Of a DNA stretch of 64,000 bases, positions 1-63,312 are shown in pieces. This stretch comes from Sphagnum compactum (taxonomy: Eukaryota). The stretch covers positions 24,294,213 through 24,358,212 of the forward strand of contig OZ234493.1 of the NCBI GenBank assembly GCA_965153455.1, in the 5' to 3' direction. Positions within the stretch are counted from its first letter, which is position 1; every line of letters starts with the position of its first letter. The position numbers and the translations under genes were made by a program. Below the pieces are notes generated by a model. It ran no database searches, was not told where the DNA came from, and saw only the letters and a list, made by a program, of their open reading frames with translations.

Positions 1-41
1 ACAAGCCCTCTTGTGACAAGAGAACATTAACCAGAACATAC

Positions 42-1961
42 CAATGACTGTAGGAATCTCTCCAAAGCTCAGGGAATCCCTGAAGAACTCCACACTCTGG
101 TCATATGAAGCAAGCATGCCCATGTTGAGAGCCATAGCTCGCACCACTGTTGGCCCTGCACCCTTCCACATTGCCAGCACTCCCTCATCCTTGATGATTC
201 TTGTGAGGGCATGGAAGGCATTTTTGTAATGGCGACGATGAGCTTCTGGAAGTGTGGCATCTGCTTGCATCCGGATGAGAGCAAGGTCAGCAGGACTTCC
301 CACAGAGGCACCAATTGCACCAGCTGTTAGTCCACATAGAGCCTTCTGGTACAGAGGCAAAGGCTTTCCATCATTGGCTGCCATAGCCTTGCTTGTCAAC
401 AACCTGTCATCCCAAAAAAAATGCACCCATTTGGCTTAGCAACCTTCCTCATTCTCTATAGAGCTTCCAAATCTCTAAAACAATATTTATTTAGAGCTTT
501 TGGTCTAGAAATTTGGAACTATACTAAGCACCCAATTCATGTGCAGGCAAATCTCTTTGCACAAGCTTGGCAAGATTAGAATCTGTCAGCAGCTGATTAG
601 AGCACAGGTGGAAATAACAAATGAGTGGTTTTGAAGTGCCAGAGAGAAACACATTTTCAGAGACATGAATGATGAGTTTTCAGACCTGAAGCTACCAAGA
701 CGGGCAGTGGTGTAAGTGGCTTGCCGCAACAAACCTGCGGACAAACCCTGCATTCCAATTCACATTGAAAGATGAGGAGGATATCCTTGCCAAAATTGAC
801 AACACAATGACACTCAAGGAAAACCACTGTAGTCCAATCTCAGTGATCCATTACAAAACTCCAAGTTTCAGCATGGATGCCCAACAACTACCTTTCAAAG
901 AGACAAGCCAATCCCTGTGTCATGAAGGCTGAAATATATACAGCCACAAGGTTCACAGGTGCAAGGCAAGACATCAGCTACTCAACCTGACAATTACAAA
1001 TCCACATTAGGGTTTGAAATAGAAGCCATGAACTCTCTCACAGATAGAACAAAGACAGACAGACACAGAGGCAAAAAATGTAAGTGTTTGCATTTGCTAG
1101 ATAAGATGGGAGGATGAGGGATCTCAAAAAATAAAATCAGACCTTGTAGAGTCCACCAATACCCTCATTCTTGATAACCTGACTTGCAACATGTGCGGCA
1201 CTGCCTTGCCCTAGCTGAATGCGCACCTGCACCAGCACACGCATTGTTGATCAGTCCTTGTTTCATGGCTATTTACTCCATCCACATGAGAGGATTCATA
1301 AAAGGAGTCTCTGTTTTATGAATCGCTCCATCCACAGAGGAGAAAAGCAGTCTCTCTTTAGAGAATTCTCGGGAACCAAGAAGACCCATCCAAGCTTTGA
1401 TGTAGGGTTATTTCGGAAGTCAACTAGAGCTGATCAGAACTTCCCAACTGTATAATCTAACCATCTAACTGTGTACTGAAGTTTTTCTGATGCCTTTTGC
1501 TGACAAAACCATAACATAACTCCTTGTGAATTGGACTATGCATGCAGAGATCTATCGATTAACAACATCATATCAAGGAACTCTTGCTGCTCAGGAGATG
1601 AGTAAACATCAGAGGCAGAGGACATAACAGACCACTCTTGGAACAGATCAGGAATCATTTATAGGGTTACAACAAGACAACCAGTGTGAGTTTGCAATCA
1701 ACACACATCCCAAGGTGGTTTTCCCCCTAGGAACCGGAAGCAGCAGGCCGTCAAGCGGAAAACGCCGCTATTCGAGCTTCATTTCCTCCCTCAAAGATCC
1801 CATGCATCAACGATTTCTGAAGGACACTTTACCTTGATCATGTCCACGGGTTGAATGACACAAGTTGCACCCATGCCTGACAAACCTCCATTCAGAAACG
1901 GCTTGACGGTAGTCCATACAGTTGTTACTGGCACTTTATTCTCTTCCGATCTAGAACCCAT
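42..1961 (-). CDS. DTC: Mitochondrial dicarboxylate/tricarboxylate carrier (SLC25 family); 5' part only, gene continues past the left window edge
   Basis: Exons (minus) 1961-1833, 1226-1143, 747-686, 403-42, all GT-AG and phase-consistent. Translation: MGSRSEENKVPVTTVWTTVKPFLNGGLSGMGATCVIQPVDMIK|VRIQLGQGSAAHVASQVIKNEGIGGLYK|GLSAGLLRQATYTTARLGSFR|LLTSKAMAANDGKPLPLYQKALCGLTAGAIGASVGSPADLALIRMQAD...GAGPTVVRAMALNMGMLASYDQSVEFF. Contains carrier PxDxxK/R-type signatures and closely matches plant DTC as recalled. Confidence 0.96.
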
Positions 1962-22616: not shown

Positions 22617-22760
22617 AAGGGAGTGTTGATGATCAAGGTGGCAGATGCAGTATCAGTGCTCCATGCTCACAACCCAGAGGCTTGCTTGAACTTTTAAAGG
22701 GAGCGTTGATGATGAAGGTAGCAGATCCAGTATCATTGCTCCACACTCACAACCCACAAG
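22617..22760. repeat. Two-copy tandem duplication (period 80 bp) downstream of the kinase stop codon
   Basis: aagggagtgttgatgatcaaggtggcagatgcagtatcagtgctccatgctcacaaccca vs aagggagcgttgatgatgaaggtagcagatccagtatcattgctccacactcacaaccca. Confidence 0.8.
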
Positions 22761-23023
22761 CTCTCGTAAACTGTTGGCCTAGTTCTCATCAGTATAAGCA
22801 CCCAGTCCAAATGCTCAAACTTCCCCATCTCAACTGTTCTTTGAGGTAGTGATGTGACTTTCTTTTCATCACAGGTCAGATGTGTGACAGAAAGTTGCAT
22901 GGTGGCCAAATCATGCCCTGAAAGACACTGCCTAACACCAGCCCAGATAAGCCCCAAAACACAAGGCTCCATGTGGCAGGCTGTAGTAAGCCACCAATAT
23001 TACAGAACTTGAGGCATGTCAAG

Positions 23024-26000
23024 TCATCGAGGAGCAAGATTAGCCAGACTCTTCCTGGTCGTTTTACGAAATGATGAATCTCGCATGATTGAGGACCTTC
23101 GTCGATGCGTAGGGGCAGTTGCAGGGGGCTCTACTGAAGACTCTCTCTGCAAGAACGTCATTTAGAAACCTGTTAGTGAGTAGTAAGACAAGATGTGCAG
23201 TGTGTTGAAACTAAGACAGTGAGAAGATCAAATCTCCCTTACAAAACAGGTAGTACATACATAGTTATGATGTCACAGTAAGAAAATGGGCAATTTGTTG
23301 ACAATTTATAATCTCTCAAAAAGAAGAAAACCTAATCTCAAACAAATTGCTCATGTTTGATAGTACCATCTGTAAGATCCAAATTTCAAGGATGATCTTG
23401 GGTTCAGATGTCTCTTGTGTTGCTCAGACCACCCAATCTCTCATACACTCATAAGGAGAGACCTATGTACCTCTCGTGCTTGGATGCAGAACACTTACAT
23501 TCAGGGGGTAACGAGGTGACCTATCACCATGATACTCAATTAAGGGCTCTCCCTGTGCATCCTTCAGGGCCAAATACTCAACACAGAATGGACCTTGATG
23601 TCGCCTAGGATCACCAGGCTTTAGCAAATGCCGGCTAAACCTCAGACCAACCTGCCATTCAGCTCGAAGCTTGACCTCATCCACACTGAACTCTCTACTG
23701 CTCGAGGCATTGTAAAACCAGAGACCTTTCTTCCACATAAGCGCATCATCCAAAGTCGCCTCAATTTTGTTCAAACCAAGGTTTTGCATGGTCGGCCAAA
23801 TCTTGCATCTAATTGCTAGCTTCTTGTTCTCAATTGTGTACTTGATGACGACAGAGGTTTGTGTGATTACATAGGTTGGCCACCTGAGAAAGGAGTGATC
23901 CAACCCCAAAAAGGCATCAGGGAACCCATAGCTTGGAAATACAACTGGTGGAAACAACAGCCAGAACATTTTCAATGAGTTCTGTAATCTTGCACGCAAC
24001 ATGCTTTTCCCTCACTATCCCTCTGCTTTCTCCAATGGTTTAAAGAAAGTTATATGCATCTGGTTGCAGTACATCCACTGAACCCACCATCCAAATAAAT
24101 TTGAACCTGAAGCATAAAAGATATTAAACTAGACACACATGTGATGACAAAACAACACCAAGACCAAATATTCAGTCAATCAAGCTTCAGACAAAATCTT
24201 ACCCATTGTCAGAACTTGTTCGAGTGTATGTGCGTGCTTGAGGACTCCCACTTGTGCGATTCGACAACCCTCCATGATTGCTCAAGGAATCCTGCAAACA
24301 AATTGTTACATGTTGGAATTTAGAATTTGGTGACGAATGCTACTCGGTGGGGTCAGGAGTGAGGAATCTATCTGATTGTCAAAGAACAGCTACAGGACTT
24401 CAACTGAAGAAGTCAAAATCGATGGCAGAAAGCCTCCCTCTGGAAAATGACTGCACGTTTTCACGAATTACCCAGGCTCTCCTATGACATTGTCAAGCTC
24501 CTCCAACCTAATACTCACAGGCTGGCATGTCACACATCCAATGGTATACTTTAAGGAGCTAGACACACAGAACATGTTCAACACACACCCCATAACATTG
24601 GAACTTTTACACTACCTGCATTCGAACTGCAATTGTCCTTGGTCAACTCTCAACATATGAAAGGGAAAACTGAAAAGGTTGACATCCCTGATCAACAGCA
24701 GGCTTGTGTAACACCAGTGAGCTTGCTGAAAAGGAAACATGCTACTGAAGAAAATCTCTTTAACAAGAAATACTAGTAATAATTTGATTTGCAATGTAGG
24801 AGGCTCTTAGTTAGGGTGACAATGGCTTTTCCCACAATCTGACATACAAAAGCAGTGATTTGCAAGGGCCATGGATTGAAAGTGCAAGAATCCAACCCAA
24901 ATTGAGGAGAGTTTTTGGTCCATTGCAGCAAGAGGCACTGGGAGGTTAATGAAGTGCCCACCTCATTACTGATTTCAGAGCTTGAAGCTTCTTCACAATC
25001 TGCAATATAAAGCCTTTTCACAACTTCTCTCATGCTGGGCCGCCGATCTGGTTCATCATCTACACAGGCCATGGCCAGTTGCACGACAGCCAGTAACTGC
25101 TGTGGCAGATACTCGCCTGGGTTGATTCTATCATCCACCATCTTGGGCAGAAGTAATGGCCACAATTCTGGATCACTGTGCAGAAAGTCCCTAGACCAGT
25201 CCACTAAGCTTGTCTGCCTCTCAATGGCTTTCTTGCCTGTCACAAGCTCAAGGAGCACCACCCCATAGCTGTATACATCATTCTTCTCATTAGCTTGTCC
25301 TGTTTTATAGTAATCAGGGTCAACATAACCTGGAGTACCCTTGAGGCGCATGGAGGTACTGGGGTCCATATTCTGTGTCTTGCTAAGACCAAAGTCTGCA
25401 ATTTTGGCATGCATGTCAGCATCAAACAAGATGTTGCTTGGCTTGATGTCACGGTGAACAAGAGTAGGCTTTGCATAATTGTGGAGATACTCCAGCCCTT
25501 GTGCAACATCCACTGCCACCTTTATTCTCTGGTGCCAGTCAAAGAGGTGCACAGAGTCAGTCTCCTCATTCTTCTTATTATGCAGGTGTTGCTGCAGTGA
25601 ACCATTCTCCATAAACTCATAGATGAGAAAGAGCTGGTCGCCTTCGATACAATAGCCGAGTAATGAAACAAGATTATTATGGTGCAACCTTGAAATGCTA
25701 CGGAGTTCACTCCAAAATTCCTTCTCAATCGCATCTTGGTTCTTCATCTCCTCACCACTGTTGCTCCTGACACCATCCAGAGCCTTGCTCCTATCTAGCT
25801 TTTTCACTGCAGCTTTTTGCTGTGGTTCTGGACCTGGGAGAGTAGCTTCATACACTGTACCTTGACCACCTTTCCCCAAAACTACTTTGAAGAAGTCTGT
25901 CATTGTGAGAATCTCCTGAAGTGTGAACATCTCAAGAGACCCAACCTGCCGCTCCCTCGGGCTGCTTGTTGCTGCATTCAGTTCCTGCGGGGGTTGTTGC

Positions 26001-26368
26001 TGCTGAGGAGAAGGCGGCTCCACTTTCTTTGACATTTGCCACCAGAAGCCTGTTGAGAGACCCACTATGAAAATGACTGTGATACTAACTATTGTTCGGA
26101 ACATATCAATTGCCATTACCAATTTTGCAAGCTTTGAAACCTCAGTTTGCATGCCTGCTGATGCCATAGGCATTTGCACTGCGCACACGTCAGATGAGAG
26201 GTTGTCAGGAGTCATACTTATTGCTTCTGGTTGCCCTCCCTGAACCTCCCAGAACATAACAAACATGATCATCAGCATGATCATGGACCAAGCTTTCAGC
26301 ATGATGGTAACTTTGATTTGCAGCCCCCAGTCATACTTCCCCTTGCTCCCTTTCTTTCTAAATCTCAT
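23024..26368 (-). CDS. RLK/Pelle-family receptor-like Ser/Thr kinase with short ectodomain, one TM helix and an unrecognised C-terminal domain; ~667 aa
   Basis: Exons (minus) 26368-24962, 24291-24203, 23883-23499, 23146-23024 with junction phases 0/2/0, ending ...KSLANLAPR*. Kinase motifs: GKGGQGTVY, AVKKL, HRDIKPSN (RD type), DFG, GTPGYVDPDY, DVYSYGVVLLEL, RPSM. Signal-like MLKAWSMIMLMIMFVMFWEVQG and TM IVSITVIFIVGLSTGFWW. Kinase exon certain; downstream exon chain inferred from splice signals and phase. Confidence 0.9.
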
Positions 26369-29300
26369 TCTTCTTTCTTCTTCTTCTTTGTGCTCCTCAA
26401 AATACAGGCAAGAGCCTGAAGAAACTCTAAAGATTTTCAAAGCTGTGAAGTAGACTGCAAGAAGCCTTTTGATCTCTCAAGCTGTCTTGAACTCCCTGCA
26501 AGTACATTGAGCAACCAACCCTAGACAACATTAGGTAACAAGATTCCCCTCTTTCTGGAAAAGTTTCGCCAGGCTACTTGATTTGGCTATACTTAGCTTC
26601 CCGCTACAACAATGAGAAAAGTTTGTGAATATCTCAGAAAACCCAATAACAAGAGCACCTGCCCCTTTACTCCCTGTCTGTGTCTCTGTGTCTAGAAATA
26701 CTCCAGAAGAGCAGAGAGCATGTCAGTGCCTAATCTCAACCCTCCTTTTGCTGCTGGCCACGCAGTTGTTGAACGTGCACTTTTGCGAAAGTTTGGAGGG
26801 TTCATGTACAGGAAAGTTAACAACAAAGAGAGGGACGGAGAGGAGAATTCCCACAGCACTTCCAGAATGAGGTTTCTCAAGCTTCTCAGCTAGGTCTGAG
26901 CTTCTTAGCTAGGTCTGAACTTCTCAGCTGCAGGCACAACAGGAACAGGCAAAGCATTGAAGCTTCAAGAACAAAGGTAGGTATAGCGGGGTTCTTACCT
27001 CGGTCTCAAGGCTCTTCGACTCATCCTCCGACTGGCCAAGGAATGTCTAAGGCGCCGAAGCTGGCAGCTGCTCCTTTTTCTCGATTCGCTCACTTGCATG
27101 GATGAGCGATATGGTGTGAAAAGTCTGGAGGAGCTTCTGCGACGGGATGTTTTGAACTGCGACAGAGATTTCACCAGTCTGTCTGTGCAGCAGAAGGTTG
27201 TCGAATCAATTCCGGGTATTCTTCCGTCTGCGGCAGTTTCTTCAAAATCGCCTGAATACTTCCGCAAGCAGAATTTGCACACTAACACTCTCCTCCTTCT
27301 TAAACTTCAGCTTCAGCAAACTTCAATCCGCACACTCTCTTTCACACAAACACAGGATTGAAACAGAAACTTAAGTCCACACACGAACTGCGACCAAATC
27401 CTGACACTACCGAAAATTCGTAATACACGTGCGCTGCTGGAAATAACTGCAAATACACCTCAAGGCGCCAGAATAGGTGGCGGCAGGAGCAGATTGAAAA
27501 TCAGAAAAAACAAAAAAACCGAAAAAAACCGAAAAAACGAAACGAAACGAAAACAGAACAACCAGAAAAATGTTCAGTTCCTAAAGCTTCGTCTACCTAA
27601 ACAGTAAGATCACTCCACAGAACCGTAACACAAAACACAAACAAGTCACCAAAACCTTGGTTAAATGTCTATTAATCCCCCCCGCCCCCCTCCCCCCCAC
27701 AGAAAACAAAAGAAAACAAATTTCAGTAGCAGCCACAGAGGAGGAAGAAAAAACTGGAAAAACCTTGCAACAACAACAAGAACAACACTAGTTCGAATGC
27801 TCTATGAAAGCACACACAAAACAAAATGCCACGGACAAAAGACACACACACACACACAAACCAAACAAAACACTCAAAACGGGTTCACAAAAGATGGTTT
27901 TCGCTTGTGTTTTTTATCAGTTCAAAAATCCTCCAGCTAGTCCTTCTTCTCCTCTTGTTCTTACTCCGAGGTCTGGTCCGCCTTCTCCTCGTCTTCCTAC
28001 TCCATTTTGTTTCCAGACTCCTGCAACACACAGTCAGTCAGTACAGGAGAGAGAGAGAAGAGAGAGAAAGCGCTCCGGGAAACCAGCTCCGCGAACAACA
28101 ACACAGTGCAAGGGGAAACGGGCAAACACACAAAACCCGCAGCGGAGACACCAAGACGATAGTCTCGAGATCGGAGCCCAGGCCCCAAACTAGTCAAAAA
28201 TAATAATATTATTATATTTTCAGAAAGGTTGAAATTTTTCACTGGAATTTTTTTTTTCCCAATATGAAATAAAATATTGTGAAAGAAAATCTATTTAACA
28301 TCATCATTTATTTGTCAAAGTGAAACTTTGAAAATTAATTCAAACTATTCCACAAAACGTGTTCATAGTTCGCAAGGTACTATGGTAGTATATAATTAAA
28401 ATCCCACCCCCGCCCCCCCCCTCCTCCCCATACAAGGTTTTCAGATTTGTCCAAAAAAACGTTTCTAAATTCACATGGGACATTAGTCAAAGACTCTTGA
28501 TTAGGCCATTTACAATTCCCATGTCATGCGGTAGAACTTTGGCAGCTTTAGGCACATGTTTTTCCAATAGTTAATTAATTTTTAAATTTTCCATTTTAAC
28601 AAAGAGAATATTCCTAAAATTTGAATCTTTTCTTTCTTTCACATTTTTTTTTATTTCGAAAAAAAAAATTTCAATATTTCAACGTTTTTGGAAATAAAAT
28701 AATTAGTGTCAAGGTAGTATGTAACTTATTGCGATTATTTTCTTTTTTTAAAAAATTATTATGAATAACTACATAATCCCCCCCCCCCTACATACTTTTC
28801 ACTTCAAGTTATTCAATCTTACCAACATCCATATTATTATCATCATGTTGTATGATTTTGGATGAGGTTAGTTTTACCCCCAAAAAATAATTAAATAATT
28901 GTATGGAGATTTTTTTGACACCACTTCCTTTGAGGGAAGGCAGTGGCAGGGTTTTTTAATTAATTAATTAATTATTTTCAATTTATGATGTAGCCTTCAA
29001 ACAAGGGCAAAAAAGAGAGTTCTATTCAATAGTGGGTCCATTGTTTGGACTAAAGAAAATTGTGCTTGGGTCTCTTGGTTCAACACACATGCTCGTGAAT
29101 TAGCATCCACAAAATTTCTTTTCATGCACGGCAAGAAAAGTTTTGTCACGGGAGGTGGTGCAATTTATGAGGAAGAATCTCATCTCATGTGTGTGCGTAA
29201 GCACCAACTTTTGCATGTTACAAAGATTGAGTCACTCACTCCCTGGCATCATCTCCTTCTCATGTGTGCAACTGGGTTACCTTCAAGTGGTCCCAGCCTC

Positions 29301-57694: not shown

Positions 57695-58036
57695 TGTTGA
57701 AAGGATTGGTAACAGCCAGCGGCTGTTAACAAATAGGAGATCTACTCAAGTGCAAACATAAAATTTTATTGAAAAGAAACTATAACACGATGCTCACAAC
57801 ACAAAACACAACATCAAGAACTCCTCAAGGTTCTTGTCACAAGAATTACACAAACTTGTGTAATGAAGAAAAGAGAGCCAAACCATCAACACCAAGGTAT
57901 TTAACTACAAAACCACACCACAAATAACCAAACTAAAATAAGTAAAGAAAGTATTTCAACCTTGTGAAAGTAACCTAGTTACTTTCTTACTCTAGTAACT
58001 AAAGAAACCTAACTAGTTGAATTTGAATTCTCAACA
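57695..58036 (-). repeat. 3' LTR of the copia element (~342 bp)
   Basis: Begins immediately after the polypurine tract (+ strand ctccccctcaa 58037-58047). Terminal inverted repeats TGTTGA...TCAACA. The left boundary could alternatively be 57692. Confidence 0.8.
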
Positions 58037-61000
58037 CTCCCCCTCAAGCTCAAATCCACTTCTAGTACACCAAGCATTTTTCGAAACTTCTTTAGCTTGT
58101 CTGTACCTAAAGCCTTTGTGAAAATGTCAGCAACTTGATCTTCGATACTAACATGAATAAGGTCAATTTCTTTTGCTAGAACTTTTTCTCTAATAAAGTG
58201 GTAGTGCACCTCAATATGATTTGTCCTAGCATGATAGACCGGGTTGTTAGCAAGTAGTATGCTACTAATGTTATCACAATAGATGACAACAGGAGCATCC
58301 ACTGACTGTCCCAAATCTGAAAGTAGTTTTTGTAACCAAACTACTTCACACGCAGCAATTGTTGCACCTCTGTATTCTGCCTCCGTGCTTGATAATGCAA
58401 CTGTTGGTTGTTTCTTACTGCTCCAACTAACAGCACCACTCCCAAAAGAAAACATGAAACCATTAGTTGATCTTCTATCTGAAACATTGCCAGCCCAATC
58501 ACCATCCGTGTATCCATGTACTTGTAACTCGCTCTTGGCTTCATAGAAAATTACACAATGTAAAGTATGTTTTATGTACCTCAATATGCGCCTCACTGCA
58601 TTCAAATGTGGCTTTCGTGGTGTTTGCATGAATTGACTCACCACTCCAACTGCATAACTCAAATCTGGCCTTGTGATGGTCATGTAAATCAAACTCCCCA
58701 CTATGCGTCTGTACATAGTGGTATCCTCCATGAGGTCTCCTTCATCTGCACTCAACTTCACATTTTGCTCCAATGGAATTGAAATGGGTTTACAACCCGT
58801 CATCCCATATTCAGACAATTTGTTCAAGGCATATTGCCTTTATAATAACCATATCCCTTTAGGGGATTGGATTACCTCAATGCCGAGGAAGTAACGCAAC
58901 TCTCCCAAATCCTTCATTTCAAACTTTTGCTTCAAAAGCTTCTTCAAATTAGAGATGTCTGCATCACTATCTCCTGTGATAATCAAGTCATCAACATAGA
59001 TAACTATGACTACAATCCCATGATCTGTCTTTTTCACATGTAGTGAAAAATCTGCATTGGATGTTTGAAATCCACTTGTGACAAGATACTGACCTATCTT
59101 GTCTGACCAAGCTCTAGGTGCTTGCTTCAAGCCATACAAAGCTTTCTTCAACCTACAAACCAAATTAGGATGTGTTTGGTCCACATAACCTAGTGGTTGT
59201 TCCATGTACACTTCTTCCTGTAAATCTCCATGAAGAAAAGCATTCTTTACATCCATTTGATGTAAAGACCATCCTTTTGCTGCTGCCATAGCAATGATTG
59301 CTCTTACAGTTGTCATTTTGGCAACTGGACTATAGGTCTCCTCATAGTCTATGCCATACGTTTGGGCATAACCTTTGGCAACCAATCTTGCTTTGTATCT
59401 GCTCACAGATCCATCTGCATTGTGTTTGACTTTGTACACCCATTTGCACCCAATTGCTTTCTTGTCTTTTGGTAAAGCTATAAATTCCCAAGTAGCATTC
59501 GCATCCAAAGCCGCCATCTCTTCATCCATGGCATTGTCCCACTTAGGATTTCCAACCGCTTGTTCAAAACAAGTGGGTTCAACCTCTTGTATAACTCTCA
59601 CCATGTATGCGTAATGATGAGCTACAAAGCCATCATATGTGAGTATTTGTACAGGGTACTTGACTCGTGTGGATCTTCGTACTCCAATGTTGTTGTCAGG
59701 TGTTTTCAAAGCTTTCTTGATCATCCGAGCTCCAGGAGTAGTAATTGAGGTGATTCTTGATTCTTCACCTTCACTCTTCTCTAACTCACTTGATTCACCA
59801 TCTACATGAAAATTTCTAGATGATGTTTGTGAACTACCATGTACCATGTTTGAAGATCTCAATCTTCCTTTCCATGGAGTGCTATTGGACCCACTAATTG
59901 AAGACTCTTGTGGTCCACTAATTAATTGTGATTCTTGTTCCACATTTGATGAAACATCACCATTTCTAGCTTCTTCCTCTTCTGCTACCTTCAATGGTGA
60001 GTACCAACTAGCCATCTCATCAAACACAACATCTCTACTCACTTGCAACTTCCGAGTGGAAGGGCTAAAACATCTATATCCCTTTTGTTTTGAGGAGTAT
60101 CCAATGAAGATACATTTCTCAGCTTTTGGGTCTAGTTTTGATCTCTTCTCATCAAGAACATGCACGTATGCAATGCAACCAAACACTTTGAGGTGTGAAA
60201 CATCGGGTTTCTTGCCTGTGAATTTTTCTTCAGGTGTCATGCCATGAACTGCCACTGTGGGTGTTCGATTCATGATGTAGACTGCAGTTGCTACTGCTTC
60301 AGCCCAAAAGTAATTTGGCAAATTTTTCTCATTCAACATGGCACGTGCTATTTCTGCAATGTGCCTGTTTTTCCTTTCAGCAACTCCATTCTGCTGTGGG
60401 GAATAACTACATGAGTACTTCCTTTGAATTCCATGCTCCTTCAAGTACTCACTGACTTCATTTGAAAAATACTCTCCCCCTCCATCGAACCTTAAGCACT
60501 TGATGCTCACACCTTTCTCCTTCTCCATCATTGCTTTGAAATTCAAAAAATGTTGAAACACTTCACCTTTGTGTTTCATGAAGTAGACCCACACCTTCCT
60601 TGTGTGATCATAAATGAAACTCACGTAGTACTTGCATCCTCCAATGGATTCTGTCTTCGTGGTCCACACATTTGAGTGGATCATTTCCAAAGGTTTGGAA
60701 CTTACATGAGTTGTTTGAGCTGGGAAAGGATGCCTAGCTTGCTTCCCCAATTGGCATGCTTCACAAACCTCTGACATCACCTCTTCTGCTCCAAATTTGG
60801 GAAGACCTCCAACAAGTTTTTGTTTCTCCATGAGCTTAAGACGTTGGAGATTAACATGGCCAACTCGCTTGTGCCAAATTCCAATGTCTCCAGCTCTTTT
60901 TCCATGTGTGAATAACATGGAATTCACCTCAGGCATGTTCACATCTAAGGTGAACATTCGTCCATTCCTTTCCCCTTTTGCAATCAATTTGCCTTGGTTT

Positions 61001-63263
61001 TTCATGTCTTCCACAAAACATCCATTTGGGTTGAATGTCACCTGTAAACCTTGTTCCACCATTTGGCCTACGGAGACCAAATTTTTGTTATGGTTGAAAC
61101 ATGAAGTACATCTTTCAGGTACTTTGTTTGCCCATCTTCCATGGACAATGACACCTTGCCAATTTGTGTGATGGGATGTGTAGTGTCATCACCAGTTTCC
61201 ACAAACCCTGGTGTCTTCAAATCTTTTGCGTCTCTAAACCATTCTCCATGGCTAGTCATGTGGTTTGAAGCTCCAGAGTCCACATACCAGACATTGTTGT
61301 CTGATACACCTCCTATCATTGAATTTGCCATGTGCTGCATCACAAACAGTTGCTCATCACCTTGATTGCTTGTTGATGCATAATTCCCTTGTTGCAGCTT
61401 TCCATTTCGTGCATCATGCTCCCTTTGATAACAGTTCTTTGCCATGTGCCCAGGTTTCCCACAGTAGTAGCAATTTGAATCGCTATTTGGTTGTTGACGT
61501 CGATGACTTCCACCACGACCTCCACGACTTCCTCAACTTCCTCTTCCTCCAAAGTTTCCTCGTCCACCTCCATGAGCTTGACCTTCATGTTGATGATGTC
61601 CACCATGCGAGCTTCCGTGTCGACCTCGAAATGAACTTTTACCACCTCTACCTCTACCTCTATTGGTATTTGAGTAGAAAGCACTTTCTTGTGATCCTCC
61701 ATTGGAAAAAGTACCAACAATTCTCATCTCTTCATTTATAAGTAGTGTTATTAAGTCTTGGAAGTTGGGAAATGTTTCCCGAACTGCAATTGAGGTACGG
61801 AACTGACTATAGTTGTCGCAACCCTAGCTTTGGGCTCGCGGCCAAGGCTAAGGGGGTTGCAAGGTTGCGGGCCAAAAGGAAGGAAGCCCGGGAGTTAAGG
61901 CAAGAAGATGCCCGGGAGTCACATCACATACTCGCAGGAGTGTTAGAAAGTGTGAGGGAGTATGAGGGAGTGAACCCTCACACTCCCAAGGCAACTCCCA
62001 CTTGGGGAGATGGAGTCCCGGTGGACTCTCAAAACTTCAGAGAGCGATTGCAGGGGTCAAACCTCAATTTCTGGTGACATTCTTTATATCATTGGAAAGC
62101 TCTTAAAGCGTAGATGCCTAAAATGGGCTCGCATGGCTCATTTGGATCTTTGAAACACAAGTTATGACCAAAAGAAAGGTCGGGAGTCGAACTGCCAGTT
62201 TGACTCCCGACCACTAAAAGTCAGGAATCGACCCGATTGACTTAGCTGCAAGGGGCGGTCCACATATCGTTGGAAAGCTCTTGACAAGAGCTACAACTTT
62301 GCTTCAAATTGCATTGCAATCTGAGGTCTGCTCGCAAAGTTATGGGGCTTCAAAGTTGCGGGAGTCCCACTTGGCGCGATTTCGGGACTCCCACGCGGGA
62401 GTCCCGGGAAAAATAGCCATTTGGATGTAGCCTCCGTGGAGAGCTGCAGAGTATACTATAAGGGGGAAGGTGGTGGCTTCCCCCCCAAGTCCGGGCCGTG
62501 GTGAGTCTTGTGTGTCCGTGTTGCCCGTGGCTCGTCCTAGCACCAAAGGTGCTCCAACTATGCACTAACCACTTTGTGTGGGTTGTGTGCAGGCCCGTGT
62601 GAGTGAATAAGCTTGTCAATTCTTCCTAGTCCCATCCCGGAGCTCCAACACGCCCCTCTACCCCTCCAAGTGTTGGGAGCTAGGGAGCGGCTCCAAGTTC
62701 CAACTCCTTCCGCATTGCCGCATACTTGGACCCTCAAGTGGGTCCACTAGGAACTTGGGAGCGCATCAATAGTCTTTTCGAAGTCCATTTAAGGTCACGG
62801 CCACTAAATCTTCATCATGTACAGGGGATCCTATAGATGCAAGAACATTTGCAAGGTTTTTCACCTTAGTAGAATAGCCATTGATGTTCATCTTGTTTTT
62901 CTGTAGATTATGCAACTCTTGCTTGAGCTGCATTTTTCGGGCTTGTGTATTGGTGCTGTACATCTTCACCAATGTTTCCCAAGCTTGCTTGGGTGATTTT
63001 GCATCTTGAATATGCACAATCATGGAATCAGACACACTCACAGAAAGCCAATACAAGACTTTCCTTGCTTTTTCATGCCAAGTTTTATTGGCTTGAATTT
63101 GTTGTTGTGTGGGGTTTTCTAGGAGAGGAGGTTCTTTTTCACCACCAGTTATGAATTCCCAGTAGCCTTTCCCCATCAAGAAATTCATAATCCTAAATTT
63201 CCACACTTGGAAATTGTTCTTGTCTAATTTCTCAATTGCAATTTGAGAAAGACCGTCCGCCAT
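58009..63263 (-). pseudogene. Disrupted copia gag-pol polyprotein
   Basis: Solo-LTR insertion in gag; in-frame TGA at 61535-61533; single-base frameshift near 61080 (TITK.LVSVGQ); in-frame TAA at 58842-58840; integrase catalytic Asp replaced (HSNVW instead of HSDVW). Confidence 0.9.
61814..62768. mobile_element. 955-bp solo LTR of an unrelated LTR retrotransposon inserted in the copia gag
   Basis: Starts TGTCGCAACC, ends GCGCATCA, with a perfect 5-bp TSD ATAGT at 61809-61813 and 62769-62773. Removing it plus one TSD restores the gag frame (..NGLRKDYSQFRTSIAVRETFPNFQDLITLLINEEMR..). GC-rich and dissimilar to the 342-bp copia LTR. Confidence 0.92.
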
Positions 63264-63312
63264 CTCTCAAGGCACTACTCAATGTCTTCTTGGGGTTTCA
63301 AAATGATTTTAA

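Follow-up and report, generated by a model that had tools for sequence, protein, structure and literature searches.

A membrane-anchored kinase of peat moss with a conserved C-terminal domain which may represent a new protein family

Land plants receive signals mainly through receptor-like kinases, and the diversity described for these proteins is, to our knowledge, located almost entirely in their extracellular portion. A gene located in a stretch of 64,000 nucleotides of contig OZ234493.1 of Sphagnum compactum (the whole stretch is called the window in the following, and positions are counted from its first nucleotide) raises the question what a kinase of this kind may do with an extra domain at its other end, which is located C-terminal to the kinase and encoded by an exon of its own. 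The answer developed here is that the gene encodes an RLK/Pelle (RLK, receptor-like kinase) protein kinase with a new lineage-restricted domain predicted to be cytosolic, and that this domain may in itself be a new family or fold. That it is a conserved moss-specific addition to a membrane kinase, working there as a docking or regulatory module for an acidic ligand, is the reading which we consider fairly probable.

The gene model was read from the sequence and checked by translation, which yielded a protein of 667 amino acids from four coding exons. In the splice sites given here and below a slash marks the exon boundary.

26368..24962, minus strand: coding exon 1, 469 codons (P0039), donor GAG/gtgggc
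24291..24203, minus strand: coding exon 2, 89 nucleotides, phase 0 in and 2 out, encoding a disordered linker rich in serine and threonine, DSLSNHGGLSNRTSGSPQARTYTRTSSDNG
23883..23499, minus strand: coding exon 3, 385 nucleotides, phase 2 in and 0 out, encoding the 128 amino acid domain (P0001)
23146..23024, minus strand: coding exon 4, 40 codons followed by the stop codon TGA (23026-23024), encoding a disordered, basic, serine-rich tail, RESSVEPPATAPTHRRRSSIMRDSSFRKTTRKSLANLAPR

Exon 1 contains the start codon, two hydrophobic segments, a juxtamembrane region, and the kinase, and closes with an acidic serine-rich end (...CEEASSSEISNE). Exon 2 is bordered by the splice sites cag/GAT and GG/gtaag, and exon 4 follows the acceptor gcag/AGA. 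A preliminary description of this DNA had claimed a 385 nucleotide exon with strong splice sites, and both the acceptor ...ttctcag/G (AG at 23885-23884) and the donor ...AAT/gtaagt (GT at 23498-23497) of exon 3 were found as described. The phases, which had been said to bridge the linker exon and the final exon, agree with the translated model. The first base of exon 3 finishes a glycine codon split from exon 2, the other 384 nucleotides form 128 codons, and the peptide reported earlier for the domain is the exact translation of 23882..23499. The stop-to-stop frame around the exon comprises 182 codons in a window with a G+C content of 37.7%, and only one copy of the domain was found within the window by tblastn.

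Related proteins show how exon 3 is joined to the rest of the gene. The best database match, P0002 from Sphagnum jensenii, also has 667 amino acids and spans the same three junctions (...EISNE/DSLSN...SSDNG/WSTYV...RYPLN/RESSVEPP...APR). When P0002 was compared to the window by tblastn, matches were obtained in all four exons, including exon 1, exon 2 (24294-24202), and exon 4 (23152-23027). Identical junctions are present in P0163 and P0165 from S. magellanicum and S. fallax; like P0002, these are gene models. A contig of 3,708 bp holds P0159, one uninterrupted frame of 669 amino acids, which begins in the 5' leader and passes the junctions between exons 1 and 2 and between exons 2 and 3 exactly before it enters intron 3 (...RYPLN/VSVLHPSTRGT, the same as the read-through in the window). 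The same span takes up 3,345 bp in the genomic locus, the introns of which are full of stop codons, the read-through of intron 1 closing after about 70 codons in the window (compare P0153). Such a frame cannot come from the locus itself, and P0159 thus resembles an RNA spliced in part. At the start of intron 3 (23463-23498, minus strand) this sequence, from which introns 1 and 2 are gone, reads VSVLHPSTRGT and then stops; such a read-through would cut the protein just past the domain, with loss of the basic serine-rich tail, and it is possible that this intron retention is regulated. In other mosses the kinase, the domain, and the tail are found unbroken on contigs barely exceeding the open reading frame (P0016, 617 amino acids on 2,099 bp, and P0020, 651 amino acids on 2,121 bp). 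Eleven further sequences (P0006, P0023-P0031, and P0033) are exon-sized fragments with the entire domain between unrelated flanks; we infer that they are genomic, and they fit a domain on its own exon across the whole family. Rather than being absent from kinase transcripts, an outcome which had been named beforehand as speaking against a fusion, exon 3 is thus found in kinase reading frames (P0002, P0159, P0163, and P0165), and it is a constitutive coding exon of the Sphagnum kinase gene, present as a single copy in the window. Kinase-only matches of more than 50% identity (P0040-P0069) were considered as counter-examples lacking the domain and were set aside as truncations by gene callers which ignore introns: the eleven with their C-terminal ends given all continue beyond the exon 1 donor, and P0040 and P0153 agree with the read-through of intron 1 in the window (...SNE/VGTSLTSQ...). 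In the model P0166 from S. balticum the usual last exon is swapped for another end (...RYPLN/CLSGHDLATM...VVSVEQ), which corresponds to an open frame of 88 codons kept in the window at 22733-22999 on the minus strand, downstream of the stop codon. Either a last exon is used alternatively here or the annotation is in error.

How strongly the individual parts of the protein are conserved was assessed in 14 comparisons by measuring the identity to P0002 region by region. The N-terminal region reached 2-30%, the transmembrane helix with the juxtamembrane region 28-70%, the kinase 51-87%, the linker 20-75%, the C-terminal domain 49-82%, and the tail 0-62%. Conservation of the domain equalled or exceeded that of the kinase in 10 of the 14 comparisons and was lower in the remaining 4, and the linker and the tail were less conserved than the domain in all of them. 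Close orthologues from Sphagnum are 96-98% identical in the domain as compared to 93-95% in exon 1, and an identity of 49-64% has been kept by the domain since the split of Sphagnum and Bryopsida. Purifying selection, the lack of which would have spoken against a functional exon, thus appears from protein identity to act on the domain as strongly as on the kinase, the linkers not being conserved in this way. The alignments are shallow and comprise 21-28 sequences.

The distribution of the domain was examined in protein collections which are mostly prokaryotic and metagenomic. A word-seeded search over longer proteins gave 21 matches, 19 with a Pfam kinase and two being fragments, and the named ones were from Sphagnum jensenii, S. 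fallax, S. magellanicum, S. balticum, Physcomitrium patens, and Ceratodon purpureus. An exhaustive phmmer search of 1.84e9 representatives found 19 proteins with an expectation value (E) of 1e-3 or below, all of them at least 45% identical and from one moss family, and the scan showed no tail of weaker distant matches. A profile of 21 domains, scored on just those 8,000 candidates which had most words in common with it, yielded 22 matches at E<=0.1, all from the same family. Compared to 139 collected proteins this profile matched 38, and non-moss kinases reached no better than E=0.16. The domain had been called lineage-specific, and the matches of the phmmer and profile searches indeed all belong to this one moss family: to date its known occurrence is limited to mosses (Sphagnopsida and Bryopsida), where it comes only in fusion with this kinase clade. 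A bacterial donor was not visible at the sequence level in these collections dominated by prokaryotes and metagenomes.

With the kinase region as a query 4,620 matches were obtained, and the 120 which were listed are plant RLK and receptor-like cytoplasmic kinase (RLCK) proteins. Among these listed matches, family members have at least 51% identity and the named non-moss kinases, which come from mixed subfamilies, 32-41% at a coverage of at least 93%. A quick maximum-likelihood tree was calculated from 25 rows, which were the window, 19 family members, and 5 hand-picked outgroups. In this tree the family is a single clade with a Shimodaira-Hasegawa-like approximate likelihood ratio test (SH-aLRT) value of 100 and a long stem of 0.72, the outgroup branches being long and the root only as good as the five outgroup rows. 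Three sub-clades are seen, one with 7 Sphagnum rows including the window, one with 3 Sphagnum rows, and a third one with 10 rows, the named members of which are Bryopsida. All 20 family rows contain the domain. As it is found only in these two classes, fused to this kinase clade, the simplest reading is that it was acquired once, at or before the split of Sphagnopsida and Bryopsida. Several members of the third sub-clade end in a motif with two adjacent cysteines (...CCAAPWA, ...CCAVPWGAHT, ...CCATPWAT, and ...CCAVPWAAHT in P0010, P0020, P0140, and P0032, respectively), which is absent from the tail of the protein in the window and could be a lipidation or sorting signal. The automatic names of the Physcomitrium members conflict with each other (LIP2, ALE2, PIX7, PERK8, and PBL23). 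From these conflicting names, the mixed non-moss matches, and the separate clade in a tree with five outgroups, no orthology to a named RLK subfamily (PERK, RLCK-VII/PBL, ALE2-like, or LIP-like) was found. The accessible part of PMC10916322 lists the classes URK-Pp-2 and 'Pp' and does not describe C-terminal domains there.

The part of the protein encoded by exon 1 carries three features.

26249..26305, minus strand: N-terminal hydrophobic segment, residues 22-40 (IMLKAWSMIMLMIMFVMFW), read from the translation
26039..26092, minus strand: probable transmembrane helix, residues 93-110 (IVSITVIFIVGLSTGFWW), read from the translation and followed by the basic sequence QMSKK
25007..25882, minus strand: RD-type RLK/Pelle kinase domain, residues about 163-454, assigned by Pfam

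Residues 22-40, which fall within a helix (15-43) when the orthologue is modelled at full length, are probably a signal peptide or a signal anchor. Residues 93-110, located within helix 75-114 of the same model, would be the transmembrane helix; phenylalanine 100 is invariant and glycine 103 and tryptophan 110 nearly so in 28 sequences. The kinase fusion of the preliminary description is confirmed by Pfam, where exon 1 gave Pkinase at 7.9e-43 (147 bits as compared to a cut-off of 31.7) and PK_Tyr_Ser-Thr at 2.3e-42. The kinase is placed in the RLK/Pelle family because the closest solved chains among the 60 listed by phmmer are those of SYMRK (1.1e-58), LysM receptor kinases, CERK1, BIK1, BRI1, BAK1, and FERONIA, followed by IRAK4 (2e-34); E ranged from 1e-58 to 1e-51 for the chains of SYMRK, LysM/CERK1, BIK1, and BRI1. 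The catalytic motifs LGKGGQG, AAVKK, HRDIKPSN, and DFG are present in the kinase of the window. In 28 sequences lysine 189, histidine 305, aspartate 307, phenylalanine 326, and glycine 327 are invariant and arginine 306, asparagine 312, and aspartate 325 nearly so, which suggests a catalytically intact kinase of the RD type. The glutamate of the APE motif is replaced (residues 347-353, 25310-25330, minus strand), the window reading GYVDPDY and most members GYVDPVY. The kinase P0059 from Calypogeia, the one outgroup compared by eye, retains ...DPEY, and loss of this glutamate is unusual for an intact RD kinase.

With its RD-type serine/threonine kinase and its order of N-terminal hydrophobic segment, membrane helix, and cytosolic kinase the protein resembles other RLK/Pelle kinases, from which it differs in that the named relatives lack the C-terminal domain, while the moss clade has the domain and a replaced APE glutamate. 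It had also been called receptor-like. This holds for the kinase, which belongs to RLK/Pelle, but hardly for the outside stretch between the two hydrophobic segments, which has about 50 residues only and is poorly conserved (2-30% identity). Among known systems it is close to those plant RLK/Pelle kinases which have a membrane anchor and little or no ectodomain and are called 'RLCKs with TM region' in PMC10916322.

Concerning the domain itself, P0001 contains 5 tryptophans and 10 phenylalanines and tyrosines. An AlphaFold2 model calculated with a 22-sequence alignment reached a predicted local distance difference test (pLDDT) value of 86.4 and a predicted template modelling score (pTM) of 0.81, and shows an all-beta structure of ten strands with two additional short helices, the strands being arranged in an antiparallel up-and-down array. 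In the full-length model of P0002 the kinase is confident, blocks of the C-terminal domain have mean pLDDT values of 67-87, and the linker 460-499 and the tail 623-667 remain below 50. The modelling thus suggests an independently folding all-beta module of about 125 residues and agrees with the earlier view of an aromatic-rich sequence with beta-strand patterns between flanks of low complexity. In 21 domains the isoelectric point is 7.8-9.4, with 20 of the 21 at or above 8.78, and each contains 4-7 tryptophans. Twenty nine columns are invariant, including arginine 25, cysteine 26, lysine 27, tryptophan 50, lysine 52, tryptophan 55, and tryptophan 76, furthermore aspartate 91, proline 92, arginine 93, arginine 94, glycine 97, proline 98, phenylalanine 99, cysteine 100, tyrosine 103, and tyrosine 117. 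They form the motifs RCKIWPTxKNxGxNK, WKKGLW, and DPRRxQGPFC. Cysteines 26 and 100 (23805-23807 and 23583-23585, minus strand) are invariant in 21 of 21 domains of a module which is presumed to be cytosolic.

Searches for relatives of the domain among described families gave little. None of the 21 domains reached any cut-off in the 2025 copy of Pfam, where the best match was Phage_int_SAM_3 (E 0.015, 16 bits as compared to a cut-off of 22.6, in 2 of the 21 domains), which is noise. Neither the single sequence nor the 21-domain profile matched any PDB sequence at E<=10, and a look-alike search of the ESM Atlas with P0001 and the fragment P0023 returned no usable match. Foldseek found no match at E<=1e-3, neither in the PDB nor in BFVD, where the best one had E 8.9e-3 and a template modelling (TM) score of 0.32. 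WD40/beta-propeller chains, which lead the Foldseek PDB list by E, were set aside for TM scores of 0.2 or less. The best PDB neighbours by TM score were the two domains of FAIM, the N-terminal domain of the human protein (3mx7) with probability 0.92, E 0.17, and a TM score of 0.44 by query and 0.58 by target, and the C-terminal domain (2kd2) with probability 0.72, E 0.25, and TM scores of 0.39 and 0.50, respectively. This resemblance of a predicted model lies below threshold and may serve as a lead only. The statement that the domain belongs to no family therefore stands for the 21 members in Pfam and for the sequence and profile searches of the PDB, and a known RLK C-terminal domain or a transposon protein, either of which had been named beforehand as speaking against the claim, was not matched by these members in Pfam.

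What such a domain might do has to be considered from its place in the protein. As the membrane helix is the last hydrophobic segment of the protein, the domain would be located in the cytosol, where it would sit behind the disordered serine/threonine linker of about 45 residues. With so short and variable a portion on the outside, the C-terminal domain would be the conserved non-catalytic element of the protein. It could then work as a docking or regulatory module for an acidic ligand, and candidates are a phosphorylated segment, be it of the protein's own acidic serine-rich linker or of a partner, a partner protein, or an anionic lipid of the inner leaflet. Binding of the ligand would control the access of substrates to the tethered kinase or its activity, and the serine-rich linker and the tail with its RRxS-type motif might be hinges controlled by phosphorylation. 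An acidic serine cluster (...SSSE.S.E) closes the kinase exon upstream of the domain. The tails carry RR(R/K)S-type motifs; a basic residue followed at a distance of three by serine or threonine (basic-x-x-Ser/Thr) is found in 16 of 19, and the other three have a short alternative tail in common. The KA1 domain of MARK/Par-1 kinases, which is small, basic, C-terminal, and regulatory or membrane-binding, can serve as a model for this mechanism as a small basic C-terminal domain located behind a flexible linker. This is a functional analogy: KA1 is alpha/beta and the moss domain all-beta, there is no match in sequence or fold, and the moss kinase is already anchored to the membrane.

Several points weigh against this docking or regulatory role and its moss-specific setting. 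The mechanism is inferred from composition, the pattern of conservation, and topology, and the topology was read from hydrophobic stretches of the sequence. The net charge of the domain is modest (+2 to +6), and the basic and aromatic motifs would form one surface only putatively, as some of these residues may belong to the core. The overall pTM of the full-length model is 0.48 and it predicts no fixed packing of the domain on the kinase, so that this model lends no support to an intramolecular autoinhibitory contact, although a regulated contact would still be possible. Selection was judged by protein identity only. The restriction to mosses depends on the contents of the protein collections searched, which leave out DNA from the genomes of liverworts, hornworts, Takakia, ferns, and algae.

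A different role for the domain on the cytosolic side would be self-association, by which two or more kinases would be joined there for trans-phosphorylation in place of a pairing of ectodomains driven by a ligand. The edges of beta-sandwiches often pair, and with an outside part as short and variable as that of this family (2-30% identity) control of activation must lie elsewhere. In addition, the N-terminal domain of FAIM, the sole lead from the fold searches, is a dimer according to the accessible part of PMC6628066. The match to FAIM is, however, below threshold (E 0.17-0.25, query TM score 0.39-0.44), and there is no specific pointer to self-association in the sequence, which leaves this explanation unlikely, if not strongly so.

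FAIM also stands behind the proposal that the domain is new neither as a family nor as a fold, and instead belongs, as a very distant relative, to a beta-sandwich family already known, the best candidate being a FAIM-like one. Both are small, all-antiparallel, up-and-down beta domains with two sheets, and 3mx7 and 2kd2 are at the top of the Foldseek PDB matches by TM score. The available part of PMC6628066 describes both FAIM domains as eight antiparallel strands in two sheets and FAIM, too, as a protein without sequence relatives elsewhere or a known biochemical mechanism. Besides the E values of 0.17 and 0.25, the superpositions have a root mean square deviation of 5.6-6.4 A and 9-13% identity. 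None of the 21 domains matched Pfam FAIM1 (PF06905) at E<=10, and the profile found nothing at E<=10 among the PDB sequences, which include 3mx7 and 2kd2. The FAIM domains have eight strands in about 90 residues while the moss domain has ten in 128, without an internal repeat: comparison of alignment columns 1-58 with 59-135 by hhalign gave a probability of 0.2% for a duplication. FAIM furthermore is a free two-domain protein and the moss domain an appendage of a kinase. A generic meander topology could account for the likeness, and distant membership in such a family is considered improbable.

The preliminary description had also drawn an analogy to integrated sensors or decoys. If understood as for the integrated domains of nucleotide-binding leucine-rich repeat receptors (NLR-ID), the domain would be a copy of a host target which serves as a bait for pathogen effectors. 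Like such integrated domains it is an extra folded domain appended to a signalling protein on its own exon, here to a signalling enzyme, and plant kinase fusions of the decoy or sensor type are known. Such a bait needs something to mimic, however, and neither a free-standing copy of the domain nor one fused otherwise was found in the searched collections, where every complete match carries the kinase and a donor or target protein is not seen. Bait domains typically evolve fast and NLR-ID fusions are recent and variable, whereas this fusion is old, and the domain is conserved like the kinase, with 49-64% identity since the split of Sphagnum and Bryopsida. Its exon, being asymmetric in phase (2 in, 0 out), is no simple shuffled cassette. 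The decoy analogy is accordingly disfavoured and has a very low probability. That exon 3 is non-functional, be it an open frame arisen by chance, a pseudo-exon, or a piece of a mobile element turned into an exon, has a practically negligible probability, since the Ty1/copia element which does occur in the same window (58012-63266) is 35 kb distant, the domain matches no transposon family, 29 columns are invariant across moss classes, 20 of 20 family rows in the tree have the domain, and it is confidently folded in the model, in frame, and bordered by conserved splice junctions.

Beyond the docking or regulatory role it may be asked how new the domain is. Tentatively, and with some doubt, it can be proposed that it is an undescribed protein family, possibly an undescribed fold, which was born in the moss lineage and by which the conserved recognition element of the kinase would lie on its cytosolic side instead of the outside. 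If this is true, it would be a moss signalling design in which a membrane kinase reads an intracellular ligand, which might be a phosphoprotein, a lipid, or the redox state via the two invariant cysteines. No description of the domain was found in literature searches, nor of a moss kinase family which it would define; supplements of moss kinome classifications may list the clade as a moss-specific class. Public records call these genes 'protein kinase domain-containing' or give them conflicting borrowed names. Within the kinase clade, which extends over both Sphagnum and Bryopsida and comprises at least three ancient sub-clades and several paralogues in each genome, this unclassified cytosolic domain has been retained no less tightly than the catalytic one, while the outside part drifts. 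This suggests that an intracellular input or partner is coupled to a membrane kinase in a way not yet studied. It can be tested in Physcomitrium, where gene targeting is routine and P. patens has at least three paralogues, and the domain is a candidate family for domain databases. As Sphagnum is a keystone genus of peatlands, its lineage-specific signalling genes are also of ecological interest, with no link to a trait claimed here.

The remainder of the window contains no transfer RNA gene as judged by a scan for these, and the following features.

58012-63266, minus strand: long terminal repeat (LTR) retrotransposon of the Ty1/copia type
1-435, minus strand: open frame running off the window start with a match to Mito_carr, the family of mitochondrial carriers (1.6e-21), and probably an exon belonging to an adjacent gene
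About 27400-28200, upstream of the kinase gene: several overlapping frames on the two strands which translate to low-complexity strings rich in lysine, arginine, glutamate, threonine, histidine, and glutamine (for example THTHT)

The retrotransposon has an open frame of 781 codons (58843-61185) with gag-pre-integrase, integrase core, SH3-like, and RVT_2 (7.6e-75) domains; a zinc knuckle and a Pol beta-barrel lie at 61071-61532 and a copia-type gag at 62769-63266. The low complexity of the translated frames upstream of the kinase gene suggests simple-sequence DNA in its promoter or 5' region.

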